From Escherichia coli (GTDB lineage: Bacteria; Pseudomonadota; Gammaproteobacteria; Enterobacterales; Enterobacteriaceae), in NCBI RefSeq assembly GCF_029227855.1, contig NZ_CP074356.1: a stretch of 64,000 nt of DNA; one strand, written 5' to 3'. The translations under genes were made by a program, and so were the position numbers. Below, in pieces: positions 2,318-46,250 of the stretch. Below the pieces are notes generated by a model. That model saw nothing but the letters and a program-made list of their open reading frames with translations, made no database searches and was not told the origin of the DNA. The first letter of the stretch is position 1. Each line of letters starts with the position of its first letter.

Positions 2318-2451
2318 AATTCATTCCCTGTATGAATGATTAAAGGTGATTCTACACCATCCACTGCGAACGCAAAACGTACCAGGAGGATGTTTATATT
2401 GATGATATTATGTCGCCCTATAACTATACATGATGTCAATAAGTGACAAAG

Positions 2452-2778
2452 ATGATTAAAACAACGTTACTATTTTTTGCTACTGCGCTGTGTGAAATTA
2501 TTGGATGCTTTCTGCCCTGGTTGTGGTTAAAACGAAACGCCAGTATCTGGCTGTTGCTTCCGGCGGGGATTTCTCTGGCACTGTTTGTCTGGTTGTTAAC
2601 GTTGCATCCTGCGGCGAGTGGGCGTGTTTACGCGGCTTATGGTGGCGTTTATGTCTGCACGGCGTTGATTTGGCTGCGCGTTGTGGATGGCGTGAAACTG
2701 AGTCTTTATGACTGGACGGGGGCGTTGATTGCGCTTTGCGGCATGTTGATCATTGTTGCGGGCTGGGGGCGCGCGTAA
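2452..2778 (+). CDS. ynfA: UPF0060 inner membrane protein YnfA
   Basis: 108-aa hydrophobic ORF from ATG 2452 ([26 protein letters not shown]...), four predicted TM segments. Confidence 0.9.
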
Positions 2779-2982
2779 GGACATAAATCCATTTTATCAA
2801 TAAGATACGAGGAAGTGTCAGCTGACAAAAGGTATTCTATTTCATCTTTTGTCAACCATTCACGACGCAAATATACGCCTTTTTTTGTGATCACTCCGGT
2901 TTTTTTGATCTTCATACTTGTATGGTAGTAGCTCAGTTGCGTAGATTTCATGCATCACGACAAGCGATGCAAGGAATCGAAC

Positions 2983-4197
2983 ATGAAGATCGTAAAGGCT
3001 GAAGTTTTTGTTACCTGTCCGGGGCGTAATTTCGTCACATTAAAAATCACTACTGAGGACGGTATTACGGGCCTTGGGGATGCCACCCTCAATGGACGTG
3101 AGCTTTCCGTGGCCTCTTATTTGCAGGATCACCTTTGTCCGCAGCTTATTGGTCGCGATGCGCACCGTATCGAAGATATCTGGCAGTTTTTCTATAAAGG
3201 TGCTTACTGGCGTCGCGGCCCGGTGACGATGTCGGCCATTTCAGCGGTTGATATGGCGCTGTGGGATATTAAAGCCAAAGCTGCCAACATGCCGCTTTAC
3301 CAGTTACTCGGCGGCGCGTCTCGTGAAGGGGTGATGGTTTATTGCCATACCACCGGTCACAGTATTGATGAAGCTCTGGATGATTATGCCCGTCATCAGG
3401 AGCTGGGATTCAAAGCCATCCGCGTGCAGTGCGGAATCCCTGGTATGAAAACCACATACGGCATGTCGAAAGGTAAAGGTCTGGCTTATGAACCCGCAAC
3501 CAAAGGACAGTGGCCGGAAGAGCAGCTGTGGTCGACGGAGAAATACCTCGATTTCATGCCGAAATTGTTTGACGCGGTACGTAACAAGTTTGGTTTTAAT
3601 GAACATTTGCTGCATGACATGCACCATCGCTTAACGCCTATTGAAGCGGCGCGCTTTGGTAAAAGCATTGAAGATTATCGCATGTTCTGGATGGAAGACC
3701 CGACGCCTGCGGAAAACCAGGAATGCTTCCGTCTCATTCGCCAACATACCGTCACACCCATCGCGGTGGGTGAAGTCTTCAACAGCATCTGGGACTGCAA
3801 GCAACTGATTGAAGAGCAACTTATCGATTATATCCGCACTACGCTGACCCACGCGGGTGGCATTACCGGTATGCGCCGGATTGCCGATTTTGCTTCGCTG
3901 TATCAGGTACGTACTGGCTCACACGGTCCTTCCGATTTGTCACCAGTCTGCATGGCTGCGGCGCTGCACTTTGATCTGTGGGTCCCCAATTTCGGTGTCC
4001 AGGAATACATGGGTTATTCCGAACAAATGCTCGAAGTCTTCCCGCACAACTGGACTTTCGATAACGGCTATATGCATCCGGGAGACAAACCGGGTCTTGG
4101 CATCGAATTCGATGAAAAGCTGGCGGCGAAATATCCCTATGAATCTGCTTATCTACCAGTCGCACGTCTGGAAGATGGCACGCTGTGGAACTGGTAA
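2983..4197 (+). CDS. rspA: starvation-sensing protein RspA (enolase superfamily, mannonate dehydratase-like)
   Basis: 404-aa ORF from ATG 2983 ([40 protein letters not shown]...), enolase-superfamily motifs. Confidence 0.95.
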
Positions 4198-4208
4198 GGA
4201 GTAAGATA

Positions 4209-5228
4209 ATGAAAAGCATTTTAATTGAAAAACCGAATCAACTGGCAATTATCGAACGCGAAATACCTACCCCGTCAGCGGGTGAAGTACGAGTAAAAGT
4301 GAAACTTGCCGGAATTTGTGGTTCAGATAGCCATATTTATCGTGGGCATAATCCTTTTGCGAAATATCCGCGCGTCATTGGACATGAATTTTTTGGCGTC
4401 ATTGATGCAGTGGGTGAAGGCGTGGAAAGCGCCAGAGTCGGTGAACGCGTTGCTGTCGATCCGGTGGTCAGCTGTGGGCATTGCTATCCGTGCTCTATAG
4501 GTAAGCCGAACGTTTGTACAACACTGGCTGTATTAGGTGTGCACGCTGACGGTGGTTTCAGTGAATATGCCGTGGTTCCGGCAAAAAATGCGTGGAAAAT
4601 TCCTGAAGCAGTGGCCGATCAATATGCGGTGATGATCGAACCTTTTACCATTGCGGCGAACGTAACCGGTCATGGTCAACCGACTGAAAATGATACCGTT
4701 CTGGTTTACGGTGCCGGTCCAATCGGCCTGACGATCGTTCAGGTATTAAAAGGCGTCTATAACGTTAAAAATGTGATTGTTGCCGATCGCATTGATGAAC
4801 GACTGGAAAAAGCGAAAGAGAGCGGGGCTGACTGGGCGATTAATAACAGCCAGACACCGCTTGGCGAGATTTTCGCTGAAAAAGGCATAAAGCCGACATT
4901 AATTATCGATGCGGCTTGTCATCCTTCTATCCTGAAAGAGGCCGTAATTCTGGCTTCTCCAGCGGCACGTATTGTATTGATGGGCTTCTCCAGTGAACCG
5001 TCTGAAGTGATTCAGCAAGGAATTACCGGAAAAGAACTCTCTATTTTCTCTTCACGCTTAAATGCAAATAAATTCCCGGTCGTTATCGACTGGTTAAGTA
5101 AAGGGTTAATTAAACCAGAAAAATTAATTACCCATACGTTTGATTTCCAGCATGTTGCTGATGCCATTAGTTTATTTGAACAGGATCAAAAACATTGCTG
5201 CAAAGTCTTACTCACTTTTTCTGAATAA
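4209..5228 (+). CDS. rspB: zinc-dependent dehydrogenase RspB
   Basis: 339-aa ORF from ATG 4209 (MKSILIEKPNQLAIIERE...), GHEFFG zinc-ADH motif and GAGPIG Rossmann motif. Confidence 0.95.
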   Translation: MKSILIEKPNQLAIIEREIPTPSAGEVRVKVKLAGICGSDSHIYRGHNPFAKYPRVIGHEFFGVIDAVGEGVESARVGERVAVDPVVSCGHCYPCSIGKPNVCTTLAVLGVHADGGFSEYAVVPAKNAWKIPEAVADQYAVMIEPFTIAANVTGHGQPTENDTVLVYGAGPIGLTIVQVLKGVYNVKNVIVADRIDERLEKAKESGADWAINNSQTPLGEIFAEKGIKPTLIIDAACHPSILKEAVILASPAARIVLMGFSSEPSEVIQQGITGKELSIFSSRLNANKFPVVIDWLSKGLIKPEKLITHTFDFQHVADAISLFEQDQKHCCKVLLTFSE

Positions 5229-9996: not shown

Positions 9997-10482
9997 TATC
10001 GCGTCCTCAACAATGAATTTTGTGATGCAGTGCCTGGTGCCTCCAGGTGACGTTAACCAGTTAACAATTAACGTCGGATACAGAGAATCCACCCATAACA
10101 CTGTTTTTGGTTTTAACTGTTCCGCGTGCGCTCAGCCGCATTCACCGCATCACAAAATTCACTTTAAAAACGGCGGCAGAGCAGTCACGGAGTAAAACTG
10201 ATACCGCTAAACGTCACCAGAAAATTGATAACAGAGGGCGTTGCAGCGGGGTTGTCACTTAAGCGTATGGTCAACCTGACAACCCGGTGTCCTCAACGGG
10301 GAAGGAATAACCCCGCCATACTTACCGCCGCGCCATTTCGCGGGTTGCCACAACCGGAAGCGCACGGTCGAATTAAATTTAACGACACCGTACAGTGAGA
10401 CGAACTTCGCCGTGCGCTTTCGTGTTGTGTGCCTGCTTTTAACCACGTCAGGCGAGGTGGTATCCTTAAAATCACCACAGTT

Positions 10483-17132: not shown

Positions 17133-17577
17133 GATTTGTAATTTGATAGATATGTAGATATCATTTTTCTCGCTCAAAACTGACAGTCAGATTTGAGCGA
17201 ATTGCTTATGTAAGTATTTCGCAGAATCATGCCATTTATATTTATTAGAACATACGTACTTTAAATGTGGGAGGCTGTCATGTTGGTTCTTAAATGTTCG
17301 CTGACTATTGCGGTGGTGCGGGTAATTTATTGTTCTGTTATTCTTATGGATCGCCTTTCTGACTGATTTCATATTGGCGAGATAACGGGAGTTAAGTAGA
17401 ATGCCTGCGGGTGCTTGAGGCTATCTGCCTCGGGCATGAACACCAACGGCAGATAGAGAAAAGCCCCAGTTAACATTACGCGTCCTGCAAGACGCTTAAC
17501 ATTAATCTGAGGCCAATTTCATGCTAGACACATGTAGGTTAGCCTCTTACGTGCCGAAAGGCAAGGAGAAGCAGGCT

Positions 17578-17733
17578 ATGAAGCAGCAAAAGGCGATGTT
17601 AATCGCCCTGATCGTCATCTGTTTAACCGTCATAGTGACGGCACTGGTAACGAGGAAAGACCTCTGCGAGGTACGAATCCGAACCGGCCAGACGGAGGTC
17701 GCTGTCTTCACAGCTTACGAACCTGAGGAGTAA
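17578..17733 (+). CDS. hokD: Hok-family type I toxin HokD
   Basis: 51-aa product MKQQKAMLIALIVICLTVIVTALVTRKDLCEVRIRTGQTEVAVFTAYEPEE matches remembered HokD/RelF. Confidence 0.85.
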   Translation: MKQQKAMLIALIVICLTVIVTALVTRKDLCEVRIRTGQTEVAVFTAYEPEE

Positions 17734-26402: not shown

Positions 26403-26942
26403 ATGGAGTTGCTTATGTCAAATGTGAGCGGGATCGGTGATGCTTATTACTGGAGTGTTTTTAAAATCGCCGAGGCCTTTGGGCTTCACCGGGACACAGT
26501 AAAAAAACGGCTCCTCGCGGCCAACACTCCTGTGGCTGCGACTGTCAGGGGGAACCCCGTTTACGCCCTGCAGCATGTCGGGCCCGCCCTGTTTAGTGTG
26601 AAGCATGAGGCAGCAGACTCTGTTCATGATCCATCCCGTATGGAGCCGAAAGAGAGAAAGGACTGGTACCAGTCTGAAAATGAAAGGATCAAGCTGGAAA
26701 AGGAGCAGCGAAAACTCATCCCAGTTGATGAAGTAGTCATCGTCTATTCGTCCATGAGAAAGGCTGTCGTCCAGGTTCTGGAGACAATTCCGGATGTTCT
26801 TGAACGCGATTGCGCTCTGACTCCTCAGGCCGTCGGCGTTGTACAGCAGGCCATTGATGACCTGCGATACACTCTTCAGGAAAAATCCTACGAGGCTTGT
26901 GCTGCTGAATTAATTCCTGATGAGGAAGGAGAGAGTCTCTAG
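26403..26942 (+). CDS. terminase small subunit
   Basis: 179-aa ORF immediately upstream of terminase large subunit; family assigned by position and size. Confidence 0.65.
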   Translation: MELLMSNVSGIGDAYYWSVFKIAEAFGLHRDTVKKRLLAANTPVAATVRGNPVYALQHVGPALFSVKHEAADSVHDPSRMEPKERKDWYQSENERIKLEKEQRKLIPVDEVVIVYSSMRKAVVQVLETIPDVLERDCALTPQAVGVVQQAIDDLRYTLQEKSYEACAAELIPDEEGESL

Positions 26943-26950
26943 GAGGAATA

Positions 26951-29050
26951 ATGGGTTTTTCATCAGCCCGAAATTTGGGAAGGGACATATCGGCAGGATT
27001 TTCCCCACCACGTCGCATGCCGATTTCGGAGGCTGTTAAAAAATTCATGCGTGTTCCCAAGGGGGCTGGTAACTCGGTGCCATGGGATCCTGAACTGACA
27101 CCCTACATCATTGAGCCCATGAACTGCCTGGCATCGCGTGAATACGATGCGGTGATTTTTGTTGGTCCTGCGCGAACAGGGAAGACCATTGGTCTGATCG
27201 ATGGATGGATTGTCTATACCATCGTTTGCGATCCTTCGGACATGCTCGTTGTGCAGATGACCGAAGATAAGGCCCGCGAGCATTCTAAAAAGCGCCTCGA
27301 CAGAACGTTCAGAAGCAGTGCGGCGGTAAAGAAAAGAATGAGTCCACGTCGTAACGACAATAATGTCCATGATAAGAAGTTCAGGGATGGCTCGTTCCTT
27401 AAAATTGGTTGGCCCTCGGTCAACATTATGTCGTCGTCGGATTACCGGTTTGTCGCCTTAACCGATTACGACCGTTTTCCGGAGAATATCGACAGCGAGG
27501 GTGATGGTTTCTCCCTGGCCTCAAAACGTACCACCACATTTATGTCCGCCGGGATGACTCTGGTGGAGAGCTCGCCGGGACGTGACATCTGCGACAGCAA
27601 ATGGCGACGTAAGTCGCCTCATGAAGCGCCACCGACGACTGGTATTCTTTCCCTTTACAATCGTGGTGACCGCCGCCGCTGGTACTGGCCATGTCCGCAC
27701 TGCGGTGAATATTTTCAGCCAGCTATGGATGCCATGACCGGCTACCGTAATGAACCGGATCCCTTTAAAGCCAGTGAGGCGGCGTATCTACTTTGCCCGC
27801 ACTGCAGCGGCATTATCACTGCGGAGAAAAAGCGTGAGCTCAATAGTGCAGGAGTCTGGTTGCGTGAAGGTCAGGTCATTGATCGTAACGGCAACGTTTC
27901 CGGTGAACCGCGCCGCTCCCGTATCGCCAGTTTCTGGATGGAAGGGCCAGCTGCTGCGTATCAGACCTGGGCGCAACTGGTTTACAAATTACTGACTGCA
28001 GAACAGGAGTATGAAGCGACAGGAAGCGAAGAAACACTCAGGGCGGTTATCAACACCGACTGGGGATTGCCTTATCTTCCTCGTGCCAGCATGGAGCAAC
28101 GAAAAAGTGAACTGCTTGAGCAGCGGGCAGAGCCAGTTCCTTCCTGCAGTGTGCCGGATGGCGTTAATTTCCTTGTGGCGACAGTGGATGTGCAGGCGGG
28201 ACGTCATCGCCGTTTTGTGGTTCAGGTAACTGGCTATGGCAGTCGTGGCGAACGCTGGATTATTGATCGTTACAATATCACGCAGTCATTGCGCAGTGAC
28301 TGCGACGGGGAGAGCCAGCGAATTGATCCGGCCAGCTATCCGGAAGACTGGGATGTCCTGCTGACGGATGTTTTTCATAAAAGCTGGCCGCTGGCCTCCG
28401 ATCCTTCTCAACAAATGCGACTGATGGCAATGGCGGTGGACTCCGGCGGTGAAGACGGGGTCACTGATAATGCCTATAAATTCTGGCGTCGTTGCCGTCG
28501 TGATGGCCTTGGTAAACGTATTTACCTGTTTAAGGGCGACAGCATCCGGCGCGCAAAACTGATCACCCGTACATTCCCTGATAACACCGGACGAACGGGC
28601 CGACGGGCGCAGGCCGCAGGTGATGTGCCGCTCTGGCTTCTTCAGACGGATGCACTGAAAGACCGGGTGAATAACGCGTTATGGCGTGACTCGCCAGGTC
28701 CCGGCTATGTGCATTTCCCTGACTGGCTGGGGAGCTGGTTTTACGACGAACTGACGTATGAAGAGCGGAGCAGTGACGGGAAATGGAGTAAGCCGGGTCG
28801 CGGTGCCAACGAAGCTTTTGACCTGATGGTGTATGCCGAGGCTCTGGTCATTCTGCATGGATACGAAAAGATCCGCTGGCCGGATGCACCGGAGTGGGCG
28901 AGCCGGGAAACCTGGCTGGAGTGTGTCCCGGACAGTACCGAACCGTCACCCTCACCGGAACCGGTATCCACGCCTGTTAAAAAACAAAAACGGAAGAAAA
29001 CAGTAACTGACGATGTTAACCCCTGGCTGACTTCCGGAGGATGGTTATGA
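26951..29050 (+). CDS. terminase large subunit (GpA family)
   Basis: 699-aa ORF with SD aggagg; Walker A-like GPARTGKT; characteristic size. Confidence 0.9.
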   Translation: MGFSSARNLGRDISAGFSPPRRMPISEAVKKFMRVPKGAGNSVPWDPELTPYIIEPMNCLASREYDAVIFVGPARTGKTIGLIDGWIVYTIVCDPSDMLVVQMTEDKAREHSKKRLDRTFRSSAAVKKRMSPRRNDNNVHDKKFRDGSFLKIGWPSVNIMSSSDYRFVALTDYDRFPENIDSEGDGFSLASKRTTTFMSAGMTLVESSPGRDICDSKWRRKSPHEAPPTTGILSLYNRGDRRRWYWPCPHCGEYFQPAMDAMTGYRNEPDPFKASEAAYLLCPHCSGIITAEKKRELNSAGVWLREGQVIDRNGNVSGEPRRSRIASFWMEGPAAAYQTWAQLVYKLLTAEQEYEATGSEETLRAVINTDWGLPYLPRASMEQRKSELLEQRAEPVPSCSVPDGVNFLVATVDVQAGRHRRFVVQVTGYGSRGERWIIDRYNITQSLRSDCDGESQRIDPASYPEDWDVLLTDVFHKSWPLASDPSQQMRLMAMAVDSGGEDGVTDNAYKFWRRCRRDGLGKRIYLFKGDSIRRAKLITRTFPDNTGRTGRRAQAAGDVPLWLLQTDALKDRVNNALWRDSPGPGYVHFPDWLGSWFYDELTYEERSSDGKWSKPGRGANEAFDLMVYAEALVILHGYEKIRWPDAPEWASRETWLECVPDSTEPSPSPEPVSTPVKKQKRKKTVTDDVNPWLTSGGWL

Positions 29051-29259
29051 ACCAGAATGATATCGAAGCCATGATTCAGCGTTATACGGAAGCTGAAATG
29101 GCGGTGCTGGACGGAAAATCCGTCACCTTTAATGGTCAGCAGATGACCATGGAAAACTTATCTGAGATCCGGCAGGGACGGCAGGAGTGGGAGCGCCGCC
29201 TTGCGGCTCTGATTACACGACGACGGGGGCATCCCGGGTACCGGCTGGCGAGGTTCTGA
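29047..29259 (+). CDS. head-tail joining protein (gpW-like)
   Basis: About 70-aa ORF overlapping terminase stop and portal start, ends RRRGHPGYRLARF. Confidence 0.7.
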   Translation: MNQNDIEAMIQRYTEAEMAVLDGKSVTFNGQQMTMENLSEIRQGRQEWERRLAALITRRRGHPGYRLARF

Positions 29260-30767
29260 TGGCAATTCTTGATGATGTGATTGGCGTTTTTTCACCAGGA
29301 TGGAAAGCGGCAAGGCTGCGTTCCCGGGCGGTGATCCAGGCTTATGAGGCCGTAAAAACGACGCGGACACACAAAGCCCGGCGGGAAAACCGAACTGCCG
29401 ACCAGTTAAGCCTCTACGGGGCCGTGTCGTTACGTGAGCAGGCCCGTTACCTTGATAACAACCACGATCTGGTCATTGGTGTATTTGACAAGCTGGAAGA
29501 ACGGGTGGTGGGGAAAAACGGGATTATTGTCGAGCCACATCCGGTATTACGCAATGGGGCCATTGCCCGTGATCTGGCAGCGGAGATACGCACCCGATGG
29601 AGTGAATGGTCTGTCAGTCCGGAAGTTACCGGGCAGTTTACCCGTCCGATGCTGGAACGTCTGATGCTGCGTACCTGGCTGCGCGATGGTGAGGTGTTTG
29701 CCCAGATGGTTTCCGGGCGCATAAACAGCCTGACGCCTTCTGCCGGTGTTCATTTCTGGCTGGAGGCACTCGAGCCAGACTTTATTCCCATGACCAGTGA
29801 TGAGAGCAACAGGCTGAATCAGGGCGTGTTTGTTGATGACTGGGGGCGTCCCGAAAAATATCTGGTGTATAAAAGTCGTCCTGTATCCGGACGGCAGATG
29901 GAAACCAAAGAAGTGGATGCAGAGCGAATGCTGCATCTTAAATTTGTTCGCCGTCTGCACCAGATGCGCGGGACGTCTTTATTGTCCGGTGTGCTGATCC
30001 GCCTCAGTGCCCTGAAAGAATATGAAGATTCTGAGCTGACTGCAGCAAGGATCGCTGCTGCTCTGGGGATGTACATCCGCAAAGGCGACGGACAGAGCTA
30101 TGAAACGGATGGTAATGACAGCAAGGAGAATGAACGCGAGCTTACCATTCAGCCAGGCATTATTTACGACGATCTGAAACCCGGCGAAGAAATCGGAATG
30201 GTGAAGTCGGATCGCCCCAATCCTAACCTTGAAACTTTTCGTAATGGTCAGTTGCGTGCCGTGGCGGCGGGCAGTCGTCTGAGTTTTTCCAGTACAGCGC
30301 GCAACTATAACGGCACTTACAGCGCCCAGCGTCAGGAGCTGGTTGAATCCACTGATGGCTACCTGATCCTGCAGGACTGGTTTATTGGTGCCGTCACCCG
30401 CCCGATGTATCGTGCCTGGCTGAAACAGGCTGTGGCATCCGGTGTTATCAGGCTACCCCGCGATCTTGACCGTTCTTCACTGTATACCGCGGTGTATTCC
30501 GGACCGGTGATGCCGTGGATTGACCCTGTTAAGGAGGCTGAGGCCTGGAAAATTCAGATTCGTGGTGGAGCGGCGACAGAATCAGACTGGGTACGTGCAG
30601 GTGGTCGTAATCCGGATGATGTCAAACGTCGGCGCAAGGCAGAAATTGATGAAAACCGCAAGCTGGATCTGGTATTTGATACCGATCCGGCCAGTGATAA
30701 AGGAGGCAGCAGTGCCGCAACGAAACGACAGGAGCCGCAGCACACCGACGACCAGTCCGAAGAATAA
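29259..30767 (+). CDS. portal protein
   Basis: 502-aa ORF from ATG 29259 in the position and size of a lambda-type portal. Confidence 0.85.
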   Translation: MAILDDVIGVFSPGWKAARLRSRAVIQAYEAVKTTRTHKARRENRTADQLSLYGAVSLREQARYLDNNHDLVIGVFDKLEERVVGKNGIIVEPHPVLRNGAIARDLAAEIRTRWSEWSVSPEVTGQFTRPMLERLMLRTWLRDGEVFAQMVSGRINSLTPSAGVHFWLEALEPDFIPMTSDESNRLNQGVFVDDWGRPEKYLVYKSRPVSGRQMETKEVDAERMLHLKFVRRLHQMRGTSLLSGVLIRLSALKEYEDSELTAARIAAALGMYIRKGDGQSYETDGNDSKENERELTIQPGIIYDDLKPGEEIGMVKSDRPNPNLETFRNGQLRAVAAGSRLSFSSTARNYNGTYSAQRQELVESTDGYLILQDWFIGAVTRPMYRAWLKQAVASGVIRLPRDLDRSSLYTAVYSGPVMPWIDPVKEAEAWKIQIRGGAATESDWVRAGGRNPDDVKRRRKAEIDENRKLDLVFDTDPASDKGGSSAATKRQEPQHTDDQSEE

Positions 30768-30780
30768 TTCCTGGTTCAGG

Positions 30781-32739
30781 ATGCAGGCTGGTCACCAGAG
30801 TGACGCGGATATTTATATTTATGACGAGATTGGTTTCTGGGGTGTTACAGCGAAGCAGTTTATCAGTGATCTGAATGCACTGGGCGATATCACCCACATT
30901 AATCTCCATATCAATTCACCGGGTGGCGATGTCTTTGAAGGCATCGCCATTTTTAATGCGCTGAAAACACATGGTGCGTCCATTACCGTTTATGTCGACG
31001 GTGTGGCGGCGTCAATGGCGTCGGTCATTGCGATGGTGGGAAACCCGGTCATTATGCCGGAAAACACCTTCATGATGATTCATAAACCATTTGGCTTTAC
31101 GGGCGGTGATGCGGAGGACATGCGCACCTATGCCGACCTGCTCGATAAGGTTGAGGCGGTTCTGTTACCCGCTTATGCACAGAAAACCGGGAAAACCACC
31201 GATGAAATTGCTGCCATGCTGGCGGATGAGACCTGGATGTCCGGTGCCGAATGTCTGGCACATGGATTTGCTGATCAGGTGACGCCAGCCGTTAAGGCAA
31301 TGGCATGTATTCAGTCAAAACGTACAGAGGAATTTAAAAAGATGCCGGAATCCATTCGAAACATGATTACTCCGCCACGCAACAGTGCTCCACGCGTACA
31401 GGATGATGAACCTGCAGCCTCCCGGACGCCAGTGCAGGCAGCAGCACCCGTGGTGGATGAAAACAGTATCCGTGCGCAGGTACTGGCAGAGCAAAAAGCG
31501 CGTGTAAACGGTATTAATGATCTGTTTGCCATGTTTGGCGGGCGTTATCAGACGCTGCAGGCTCAGTGTCTTGCCGATCCTGAGTGTTCGCTGGAGCAGG
31601 CCCGCGAAAAGCTGTTGAACGAGATGGGGCGCGAGTCCACGCCATCCAATAAAAATACACCGGCTCATATTTATGCTGGTAACGGTAATTTTGTGGGGGA
31701 CGGGATCCGCCAGGCGCTGATGGCGCGTGCCGGATTTGAAAAAACCGAACGTGATAATGTCTACAACGGGATGACCCTGCGTGAATATGCCCGTATGTCA
31801 CTGACTGAACGGGGTATTGGGGTTTCCGGTTATAACCCGATGCAGATGGTCGGTGCGGCGTTCACCCACAGTACGTCTGACTTCGGTAATATTCTGCTGG
31901 ATGTTGCGAACAAAGCCATTCTGCAGGGCTGGGAAGATGCTCCTGAAACCTATGAACAATGGACGCGGAAAGGTCAGTTGTCTGATTTTAAAATTGCCCA
32001 TCGTGTGGGTATGGGGGGCTTCAGTGCTCTGCGTCAGGTGCGTGAAGGGGCGGAATATAAATACGTCACCACCGGAGATAAACAGGCCACTATTGCACTG
32101 GCGACCTATGGCGAGCTGTTCAGTATCACCCGTCAGGCCATTATCAATGATGATCTGAATATGCTGACCGATGTCCCGATGAAACTGGGCCGTGCGGCGA
32201 AATCCACTATTGCCGATCTGGTTTATGCCATTCTGACGTCTAACCCGAAAATCTCCACAGATAATGTAAGTCTGTTCGATAAAGCGAAACATGCAAACGT
32301 ACTGGAGAGCGCTGCAATGGACGTGGCATCGCTGGATAAAGCCCGCCAGTTGATGCGCGTTCAGAAAGAGGGGGAGCGTCATCTGAATATTCGTCCTGCG
32401 TTCGTACTGGTACCGACGGCGATGGAGTCTGTTGCTAACCAGGTCATTCGCTCCTCAAGTGTCAAGGGGGCTGACATTAACGCCGGTATTATTAACCCGG
32501 TGAAAGATTTTGCGACCGTTATTGCAGAGCCTCGTCTTGATGATAACAGCCAGACCACCTTCTACCTGGCTGCGTCAAAAGGCTCCGATACGATTGAAGT
32601 GGCTTATCTCAACGGTGTGGATACGCCATATATTGATCAGATGGAGGGCTTCAGTGTGGATGGCGTGACAACGAAAGTGCGTATTGACGCCGGTGTCGCG
32701 CCAGTTGATCACCGCGGTCTGGTGAAATGTACGGCGTAA
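30781..32739 (+). CDS. ClpP-like prohead protease fused to major capsid protein
   Basis: N-terminal ClpP-like region (INSPGGDVFEGIAIFNALK, MASVIAMVGN), C-terminal capsid-like region; single ORF of about 652 aa. Confidence 0.8.
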   Translation: MQAGHQSDADIYIYDEIGFWGVTAKQFISDLNALGDITHINLHINSPGGDVFEGIAIFNALKTHGASITVYVDGVAASMASVIAMVGNPVIMPENTFMMIHKPFGFTGGDAEDMRTYADLLDKVEAVLLPAYAQKTGKTTDEIAAMLADETWMSGAECLAHGFADQVTPAVKAMACIQSKRTEEFKKMPESIRNMITPPRNSAPRVQDDEPAASRTPVQAAAPVVDENSIRAQVLAEQKARVNGINDLFAMFGGRYQTLQAQCLADPECSLEQAREKLLNEMGRESTPSNKNTPAHIYAGNGNFVGDGIRQALMARAGFEKTERDNVYNGMTLREYARMSLTERGIGVSGYNPMQMVGAAFTHSTSDFGNILLDVANKAILQGWEDAPETYEQWTRKGQLSDFKIAHRVGMGGFSALRQVREGAEYKYVTTGDKQATIALATYGELFSITRQAIINDDLNMLTDVPMKLGRAAKSTIADLVYAILTSNPKISTDNVSLFDKAKHANVLESAAMDVASLDKARQLMRVQKEGERHLNIRPAFVLVPTAMESVANQVIRSSSVKGADINAGIINPVKDFATVIAEPRLDDNSQTTFYLAASKGSDTIEVAYLNGVDTPYIDQMEGFSVDGVTTKVRIDAGVAPVDHRGLVKCTA

Positions 32740-32825: not shown

Positions 32826-33149
32826 ATGGCAAAGAATTTTGTAGAAGAAGGAAAAACGGTGGCGATTGTTGCCAGTGCAGCCATCAGCAGCGGAGAGCTG
32901 GTGCAGGTGGGTGATGTTTTTGCGGTGGCGCTGACCGATATTCCACAGGGTGAAACAGGCGACGGCATGACCGAAGGTGTGTTTATGCTGCCTAAGCTGA
33001 AAACGGATGACATGAAAACGGGTAAGAAGGTTTATCTGAAGTCCGGAAAAGTTCAGCTGACTAACAGCGGCTCTGATCCGCTGGTCGGGGTTGTCTGGGC
33101 AGATGCCGGAACCAGTGCAGAAGAAGTGCCGGTAAAACTCAATGTCTGA
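32826..33149 (+). CDS. head-associated protein (decoration/DUF2190-like)
   Basis: 107-aa ORF from ATG 32826 after capsid gene; family not verified. Confidence 0.55.
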   Translation: MAKNFVEEGKTVAIVASAAISSGELVQVGDVFAVALTDIPQGETGDGMTEGVFMLPKLKTDDMKTGKKVYLKSGKVQLTNSGSDPLVGVVWADAGTSAEEVPVKLNV

Positions 33150-33417
33150 TCCCTTTTCCCGGCTGGCAGCGCGTATGGATGCGATCACGGTCAGAAAGAT
33201 GGGAAAGACAGCCTCGATTAATGATGTCGATATGACTGTGATCCCGGGAGAAACACTGGCAGAGCTGAATGCTCTGTCCGGACCTGCGGTCTCTCTGGTG
33301 GTGTTTTCTTCGGGATACCGCCCACGGCGCGGGGATCGCGTTGTTTATGACGGACAACAATGGACGGTCACACGGCATGAACGCTTTAACGGTAAGCCAA
33401 TGATCTTTATTGAGTAA
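33142..33417 (+). CDS. head-tail connector protein (FII-like position)
   Basis: 91-aa ORF overlapping upstream stop, directly preceding gpZ-like gene. Confidence 0.55.
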   Translation: MSDPFSRLAARMDAITVRKMGKTASINDVDMTVIPGETLAELNALSGPAVSLVVFSSGYRPRRGDRVVYDGQQWTVTRHERFNGKPMIFIE

Positions 33418-45568: not shown

Positions 45569-46250
45569 GTGCACAGAAAACCCCCAGCTAGGCTGGGGGT
45601 TCCGGAAAGCTTTCAGCTTTGAGCCAGTTATTAAAACCCCTTTTGATTTGTTAAAACACTTTGCGGTCTGGCAACTGCAAGTGTCAAACAAGAAATCAAA
45701 AGGGGGTCCCAATGGGGAACGAAAAGAGCTTAGCGCACACCCGATGGAACTGTAAATATCACATAGTTTTTGCGCCAAAATACCGAAGACAGGTGTTCTA
45801 CAGAGAGAAGCGTAGAGCAATAGGCAGTATTTTGAGAAAGCTGTGTGAGTGGAAAAGCGTACGGATTCTGGAAGCTGAATGCTGTGCAGATCATATCCAT
45901 ATGCTTGTGGAGATCCCGCCCAAAATGAGCGTATCCGGGTTTATGGGATATCTGAAAGGGAAAAGCAGTCTGATGCTTTACGAGCAGTTTGGTGATTTGA
46001 AATTCAAATACAGGAACAGGGAGTTCTGGTGCAGAGGGTACTACGTCGATACAGTGGGTAAGAACACGGCGAAGATACAGGATTACATAAAGCACCAGCT
46101 TGAAGAGGATAAAATGGGAGAGCAGTTATCGATTCCCTATCCGGGCAGCCCGTTTACGGGCCGTAAGTAACGAAGTTGGATGCAAATGTCAGATCGTGTG
46201 CGCCTGTTAGGGCGCGGCTGGTAAGAGAGCCTTATAGGCGCATTTGAAAA
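45569..46250 (+). mobile_element. IS200-type insertion sequence (IS200/IS605 family)
   Basis: Y1 (HUH) transposase gene flanked by short noncoding ends; perfect palindrome cccccagctaggctggggg at 45581-45599 near the left end; boundaries approximate. Confidence 0.7.
45712..46170 (+). CDS. tnpA: IS200-type transposase TnpA
   Basis: 152-aa product MGNEKSLAHTRWNCKYHIVFAPKYRRQVFY... with HUH-like HMLVEIPP and catalytic Tyr region. Confidence 0.85.
   Translation: MGNEKSLAHTRWNCKYHIVFAPKYRRQVFYREKRRAIGSILRKLCEWKSVRILEAECCADHIHMLVEIPPKMSVSGFMGYLKGKSSLMLYEQFGDLKFKYRNREFWCRGYYVDTVGKNTAKIQDYIKHQLEEDKMGEQLSIPYPGSPFTGRK

Follow-up and report, generated by a model that had tools for sequence, protein, structure and literature searches.

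Protease and capsid domains in one reading frame

Can a single gene supply the protease, the scaffold and the shell of a phage head? The question is raised by an open reading frame in a 64,000-nucleotide stretch of Escherichia coli DNA (contig NZ_CP074356.1; here called the window), in which the initial annotation, made from the sequence alone, had seen a prohead protease and a major capsid protein fused in one 652-aa ORF at positions 30781 to 32739. Translation of this region on the plus strand gave 652 residues followed by TAA, and the hidden stop or frameshift that might divide it into two genes was looked for throughout 30781-32739 and is absent; the frame is in fact already open from 30520 and stop-free between 30520 and 32737. 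Mapping of domains with HMMs, the check proposed with the annotation, placed both halves of the fusion on the same polypeptide: Pfam CLP_protease matches residues 23 to 168 (E 4.5e-36) and Phage_capsid_4 residues 352 to 649 (E 8.3e-55; both in 652-aa numbering). The protein scores 985.9 bits, against a curated cutoff of 475, with the NCBIfam model NF045540 (scaf_prot_MCP1), 'ClpP-like prohead protease/major capsid protein fusion protein', and this match is nearly full length (protein residues 9-651 on profile positions 2-651 of 652), with both domains in one unbroken frame. PHROG 133 likewise matches the whole protein end to end. The length of the ORF and its domain matches are far beyond chance, and the fusion of an N-terminal ClpP-type domain to a C-terminal HK97-fold capsid domain is confirmed.

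The neighbouring genes form a canonical lambdoid head-tail block. A small terminase gene (DUF1441; 26403-26942) is followed by genes for a gpA-type large terminase (26951-29050), a 72-aa head-tail adaptor (29041-29259) and, immediately upstream of the fusion gene, a lambda-family portal protein (29259-30767, plus strand; Pfam Phage_portal_2, E 9.5e-82, and annotated as such by PGAP). Immediately downstream, on the same strand, lies a gene for a 107-aa cement or decoration protein (32826-33149; Pfam Phage_cement_2, 74 bits; PHROG 122, 'head decoration'), which found no match in a sequence search of the PDB. A separate scaffold or capsid gene was sought in the head block around the fusion gene, both in the annotation and with profiles, and none was found, in agreement with the earlier remark that no scaffold gene is visible between portal and capsid. 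The order portal, fusion gene, cement gene is kept even among homologs with only 36-45% identity, the cement gene lying directly 3' of the fusion gene in all eight of the distant loci examined.

Decayed copies of the gene exist, one frameshifted (L004) and one interrupted by IS629 (VT1-Sakai), and these lend some colour to the idea that the fusion is not genuine, two separate genes having been run together through a mistake in sequencing or assembly or through recent mutation of a prophage in decay. Against this stands the fact that the DNA, with the frame fused, is 100% identical in many complete, independently sequenced E. coli chromosomes, where PGAP gives it the NF045540 product name; the earlier statement that some annotated E. 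coli prophages share this arrangement thus holds. Matches were found in 2124 of 5426 complete E. coli genomes (~40%), with query coverage of at least 80% in 2016. The fusion is also present in phage genome records, the gene being 98-99.8% identical at the nucleotide level in phages mEp460, cdtI, Tritos, Ayreon and phi458 and ~77% identical in several Stx-converting phages; at the protein level, full-length identity is 72% with Fels-1, 69.6% with Gifsy-2 and 57% with the Pseudomonas phages MD8 and F10. Beyond these, a HMMER search of 1.84 billion representatives listed more than 100 end-to-end homologs of 640-740 aa with 35-60% identity, and the family has a dedicated, curated NCBIfam model. 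Because of this frequency in E. coli, in phages and among distant homologs, the comparison indicates that the fusion is an old, widespread and stable arrangement. An artefact is vanishingly improbable and, on these comparative data, already refuted.

Start codon, anatomy and probable cleavage zone

The frame and the end of the gene stand as first annotated, but its start probably lies 69 nt further upstream, at GTG 30712 rather than at ATG 30781. The full gene would then run from 30712 to 32739 on the plus strand (675 codons plus TAA), with a predicted product of 73.5 kDa. We place the start there because of its strong Shine-Dalgarno (SD) sequence, the position of a conserved motif, the extent of the homolog alignment and the choice made by PGAP. 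The sequence AAGGAGG (30700-30706) stands 5 nt ahead of GTG 30712, and its duplex with the anti-SD (-11.6 kcal/mol) is stronger than at any other start codon in the ORF, ATG 30781 reaching -2.7 kcal/mol. The residues N-S-W-F-R-M in the window align to (N/E)-S-W-Y-S-I in Gifsy-2 and MD8, and the conserved N-S-W-F/Y motif with its Trp sits upstream of M24, the residue encoded by ATG 30781, which is Ile in both of these phages. Among diverse homologs the alignment begins at about residue 16 of the 675-aa form, residues 1-15 being mostly gaps, and in an AF2 model the first strand of the protease domain occupies residues 23-26 of this form. PGAP picks GTG 30712 in identical E. coli DNA; the mEp460 and cdtI GenBank records pick the ATG and so have the 652-aa boundaries of 30781-32739, and annotated lengths differ between records, being 652, 675 or 707 aa. 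With the GTG start, the gene shares 56 nt, read in another frame, with the end of the portal gene. Residue numbers below refer to the 675-aa form.

The AF2 model (mean pLDDT 87), for which 53 homologs were used, contains a protease fold and a capsid fold in one chain, with disordered linkers at residues 224-247 and 307-326. Following a disordered N terminus (residues 1-17), a ClpP-fold head-maturation protease domain occupies residues ~20-222 (30769-31377, plus strand), and its fold in the model is of the ClpP/crotonase type. Ser101 (codon 31012-31014) and His124 (31081-31083) align to the nucleophile and the general base of ClpP, and the third triad position, Asp in ClpP-type serine proteases of MEROPS family S14, is taken by Glu173 (31228-31230). 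The presence of Glu instead of Asp at this position might suggest that the domain is an inactive ClpP-like module, serving only as scaffold or cargo while a host protease carries out maturation. This is very improbable, in that neither the Ser nucleophile nor the His varies among the 53 homologs, which range from 69% down to 33% identity, the Glu is itself conserved in an 'ETW' family consensus, and the domain scores 215.8 bits, against a cutoff of 120, with the NCBIfam equivalog-domain model 'head maturation protease, ClpP-related'.

The protease domain is followed by Linker 1 (residues 224-247; 31381-31452, plus strand), a Pro/Ala-rich stretch that is predicted to be disordered (pLDDT below 50); it varies in length and sequence and shows low conservation and many gaps in the homolog alignment. 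Next comes a scaffold-like segment (residues 250-306; 31459-31629, plus strand) of three helices (250-273, 280-288 and 294-306), predicted with high pLDDT and conserved across the family, which by analogy may be the counterpart of the HK97 delta domain or of lambda Nu3. The earlier description of the N-terminal third as ClpP-like is therefore apt for the protease core, which takes up approximately the first 30% of the protein, but it did not single out this distinct helical segment of ~60 residues. Linker 2, GRESTPSNKNTPAHIYAGNGNF, covers residues 307-326 (31630-31689, plus strand) and is disordered in the model, and it leads into the HK97-fold major capsid protein domain (residues 327-675; 31690-32736, plus strand), which has the HK97 fold in the model. 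A phmmer search of the PDB for a close solved structure returned only weak matches to Mu GpT-domain capsid proteins (E 3e-4).

Where, then, would the capsid protein be freed? The maturation cleavage most likely falls in or near residues 307-326, a zone favoured because it is predicted to be disordered (pLDDT below 50 at 316-323) and because conservation between the two folded parts, the helical segment and the capsid fold, is lowest there. A cut in Linker 2 would give a mature capsid protein of a predicted 38-40 kDa, or 38.0 kDa if made between residues 326 and 327. The earlier caution that the cleavage points are not evident from the sequence remains fair, since our narrowing reached only a disordered zone. 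The literature searched gave no usable proteomics or cleavage data on the family; the primary Gifsy-2 paper, which possibly reports precursors and the mature N terminus, lay outside that search.

Overall, we consider it likely, with a probability of roughly 0.85, that the gene is intact and serves head assembly in a lambdoid E. coli prophage whose head is of the mEp460/cdtI/Gifsy-2 type, and, with the same probability, that it encodes in frame and in this order a ClpP-fold serine protease, a Pro/Ala linker, a helical scaffold of ~60 residues, a short linker and an HK97-fold capsid protein.

A candidate internal translation start

An in-frame SD sequence and start codon lie downstream of the protease domain, an arrangement of the lambda C/Nu3 type. 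In the window the candidate element (31327-31344, plus strand) consists of GAGGA (31327-31331), a spacer of 10 nt and ATG 31342, which encodes Met211 (Met188 in 652-aa numbering). Initiation here would yield a predicted product of 465 aa (50.7 kDa) that comprises linker, scaffold and capsid protein without the protease, and its removable N-terminal part, residues 211 to ~326, would measure 116 aa.

A linker ATG preceded by a strong and well-spaced SD is conserved in more distant clusters as well. Hypervariable as Linker 1 is, almost every distant homolog in the alignment has a Met in it; Pro, Thr or Lys comes next, and the residues ahead are rich in Glu, Gly or Lys. We made no use of such Met counts, and tested DNA context instead, because in linkers of ~50 residues chance alone would put a Met in about two thirds. 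Eight independent, distant homologs (36-45% identity) have a linker ATG with a strong SD at a spacing of 5-8 nt, for example AGAAGGAGG, AAAAGGAGG and AGGAGGAA, and in seven of the eight no more than one of the ~44 in-frame start codons ranks above this ATG. The analysis was extended to 164 fused genes, grouped into 46 clusters at 70% identity, with start codons ranked by SD energy. The best linker start was the first of ~45 in-frame starts in 14 clusters, among the top two in 24 and among the top three in 30, giving a combined p of ~2e-9, a value that overstates the independence of the clusters, which are related to each other. The comparison indicates that the SD is placed specifically before the linker ATG and is not a by-product of composition, because an SD of this quality stands before only ~6.5% of the codon positions in the linkers.

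Within the clade to which the window belongs, the ATG of Met211 is kept in all 74 distinct loci, with a fixed NAG-GAN element upstream. Codon -5 in these loci is GAG (57), CAG (6), AAG (5) or GGN (6), and never GAA, AAA or CAA; at codon -2, where Glu is encoded in the same clade, GAA outnumbers GAG by 35 to 5. The GAG-GAN element also encodes a conserved Glu-Glu/Asp pair, so that the protein sequence accounts for some of its conservation. In a profile of synonymous entropy over 86 distinct sequences, the most constrained stretch comprised codons 1-18, where the gene overlaps the portal gene and which thus serves as a built-in positive control, and the second most constrained comprised codons 202-217, around Met211.

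Two proteins, P0167 (443 aa) and P0227 (468 aa), begin exactly at the equivalent of Met211, and both were considered as natural split genes and rejected. Locus L004 lies in a degraded prophage and is a pseudogene with a frameshift; at locus L005 the frame stays open up to the end of the contig, 35 nt upstream.

The internal SD of the window is itself modest (GAGGA, -6.0 kcal/mol), with a spacing longer than optimal, and the 5' start is far stronger. Because of this difference, and of the wide spacing, members of the window's clade could make little or none of the internal product. The same facts, together with the presence of a single ORF, speak for a quite different reading, that the 73.5-kDa protein is the sole product and that the linker ATG and its SD-like element have no role in initiation, each of the ~415 subunits of the shell carrying a protease and a scaffold that are removed after assembly. 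Consistent with this, the published descriptions consulted speak of one composite gene, with no second product. A lone polyprotein is a real possibility, to which we give a little less than even odds, and it has to be weighed against the conservation of a linker ATG with a well-spaced SD over 46 diverged clusters despite the hypervariable linker, and against the suppression of synonymous variation near Met211. It would also make for a crowded, if possible, procapsid: by a rough estimate, an internal part of 35.5 kDa in 415 copies would take up over half of the interior of a T=7 procapsid, and, equally roughly, the internal mass would be several times that of HK97 or lambda proheads. We regard a nested second product, a protease-free scaffold and capsid protein initiated at ATG 31342 in the manner of lambda C/Nu3, as having a slightly better than even chance, on the sequence comparisons and by analogy with lambda. 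For the head genes of the Gifsy-2 type in general, it is an even bet that the gene is such a nested pair, in which the ratio of the two starts would set the number of protease copies per procapsid. No mention of a nested pair was found in the literature searched, of which the primary Gifsy-2 paper was not part.

Related heads and a proposed assembly pathway

The closest counterpart for which there is experimental work is Salmonella phage Gifsy-2, whose 'tripartite capsid gene' (STM1034.3n) was reportedly described by Effantin et al. (2010, Virology 402:355). This gene is a full-length homolog (69.6% identity over query residues 1-651 by tblastn) in which protease, middle segment and capsid domain follow each other as they do here, and its neighbours are shared as well, with a lambda-type terminase, a small head-tail adaptor and a portal gene upstream and, downstream, a 107-aa cement or decoration protein gene (STM1034) whose product is 60% identical to that of the window. 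The gene of the window is accordingly of the Gifsy-2 type in its full-length homology and in the synteny of portal and cement genes with no separate scaffold or capsid gene. Also present in Gifsy-2 are the Met-Pro at the candidate internal start and, ahead of it, a GAGGAG element; this gene differs in host and prophage, in its longer linker and in its annotated length of 696 aa. Published work gives the Gifsy-2 capsid as T=7 (PMC8814770) and places a trimeric decoration protein at its three-fold axes (PMC8538268). Among closer relatives, mEp460, cdtI, Tritos, Ayreon and phi458 (NF045540) differ in nothing of substance, only in the annotated start. Pseudomonas phage MD8 gp5 is more distant (57% identity over its full length; a different host), again with a head decoration gene following it, and a bioinformatic description that does not mention an internal start reads it as one gene uniting protease, scaffold and capsid protein (PMC8508860).

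Two classical systems, HK97 and lambda, share features with this gene. In HK97 gp5, as here, a scaffold function is fused N-terminally to an HK97-fold capsid protein and is removed by the phage protease, and the delta domain of 102 aa is comparable to the predicted 116-aa removable part of the internal product. HK97 differs in having a separate protease gene (gp4) of another family, no decoration protein and a covalently crosslinked chainmail, whereas the gene described here carries a ClpP-like protease in the capsid frame and is followed by a cement protein gene. In lambda, the scaffold is produced from an internal in-frame start within the protease-scaffold gene C/Nu3 (Shaw and Murialdo 1980, cited in PMC8508860). 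Here too a protease of the ClpP/SppA clan lies N-terminal to the scaffold in one frame, with the candidate start just past the protease domain, and lambda-type terminase, portal and tail genes and a decoration protein are present. Lambda differs in that its capsid protein E is encoded by a separate gene and its C protein is of the SppA-like S49 type, and the internal product proposed here is predicted from sequence only. Fusions of protease, scaffold and capsid protein are also described in small actinobacteriophages, among them Microbacterium cluster EE and Arthrobacter cluster AN (PMC7302621); these unite the same three functions in one gene in unrelated siphoviruses with small genomes, and they possibly represent an independent event.

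Drawing on the family and on the HK97 and lambda paradigms, we infer the following course for assembly, cleavage and the second product. Driven by the scaffold segment, capsid subunits would assemble together on the portal to form a T=7 procapsid whose interior holds their N-terminal parts, and the tethered protease, thereby encapsidated, would become active. It would then cut in or near residues 307-326, strip off everything N-terminal to the capsid domain and digest itself, and the resulting shell of ~38-40-kDa subunits would expand as DNA is packaged. Trimers of the cement protein encoded by the downstream gene would lock the three-fold positions last. Were ATG 31342 used as a start, 50.7-kDa protease-free subunits would be made beside the protease-bearing ones, all from one gene.

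In phage records, the gene goes by names as different as 'protease C', 'Nu3', 'terminase protein', 'major capsid protein' and 'scaffold protein', and at least three starts are in use. Because the annotation is so chaotic, automated searches for capsid proteins can miss the gene; one study failed to retrieve an HK97-fold capsid protein for Gifsy-2 (PMC8814770).

The fusion arrangement as such is already known from a curated NCBIfam model, from the experimental precedent of Gifsy-2 (2010) and from the bioinformatic description of MD8 (2021). What is added here is the correction of the start codon and a conserved signal for internal initiation. If the internal start is real, it would explain how a phage with one head gene controls its protease dosage, and it would join at a single locus the strategies of lambda, with its nested C/Nu3, and of HK97, with its fusion of delta domain and capsid protein.

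Start and naming of the fused gene

The prophage head gene that fuses a ClpP-type protease, a scaffold-like segment and an HK97-fold capsid protein has been given three alternative starts in database records, its start region spanning positions 30712 to 30783. The GenBank records of mEp460 and cdtI begin at ATG 30781 (652 aa), PGAP begins at GTG 30712 (675 aa), and older NCBI entries have a product of 707 aa. Sequence evidence favours GTG 30712 as the start. An antisense ORF of 194 codons (31798 to 32382, minus strand) lies within the capsid-coding region and is most likely a mechanical ORF.

Naming of the gene is very inconsistent among the phage records that match it (H1-H25 and H91-H150), with labels that include "head-tail preconnector protease C," "Nu3," "terminase protein," "major capsid protein," "putative protease," and "protease/scaffold protein." Such inconsistency is possibly why one published pipeline retrieved no HK97-fold capsid protein for the Salmonella phage Gifsy-2 (PMC8814770).

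Interrupted copies

In the Stx1 phage VT1-Sakai (AP000400.1, H107), the copy of the fused gene is interrupted by IS629, and the record of PAN70 (KJ959591.1, H132) itself states that the reading frame is disrupted. At a further locus, L004 (positions 2411 to 4386; GCA_000755365.1, contig BBMQ01000056), a copy 51% identical to the fused gene carries a one-base frameshift that leaves the protease in an ORF of 201 aa and the capsid part in a second ORF of 443 aa, and the gene caller's restart for the second ORF falls exactly at the equivalent of Met211, the candidate internal start (ATG 31342) in the linker after the protease domain. This copy appears to sit in a scrambled prophage remnant.

RNA genes in the window

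At the gathering threshold, Rfam matches in the window comprised the DicF antisense RNA (10171 to 10222, minus strand), the sok antitoxin RNA (17409 to 17583, plus strand), which points to a hok/sok-type module within the prophage, and the Hfq-binding small RNAs STnc490 (45579 to 45702, plus strand) and STnc560 (61011 to 61224, plus strand). A search for tRNA genes across the 64,000 nucleotides found none.

Genes downstream of the capsid gene

The gene at 33142 to 33417 (91 aa) matches Pfam PF13856 "Gifsy-2," described as "ATP-binding sugar transporter from pro-phage," and PHROG 153, and is named "DNA breaking-rejoining protein" by PGAP. Its position and the PHROG 153 match identify its product as either a head-tail joining protein or a minor tail protein, and both the PF13856 description and the PGAP name therefore look wrong. 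Between it and the fused gene lies a Phage_cement_2 (formerly DUF2190) gene (32826 to 33149), which PGAP still calls "DUF2190 family protein." In all of the distant loci examined (L085-L092), the gene immediately downstream of the fusion is likewise a Phage_cement_2 gene, suggesting that this capsid type and its cement protein form an obligate pair.
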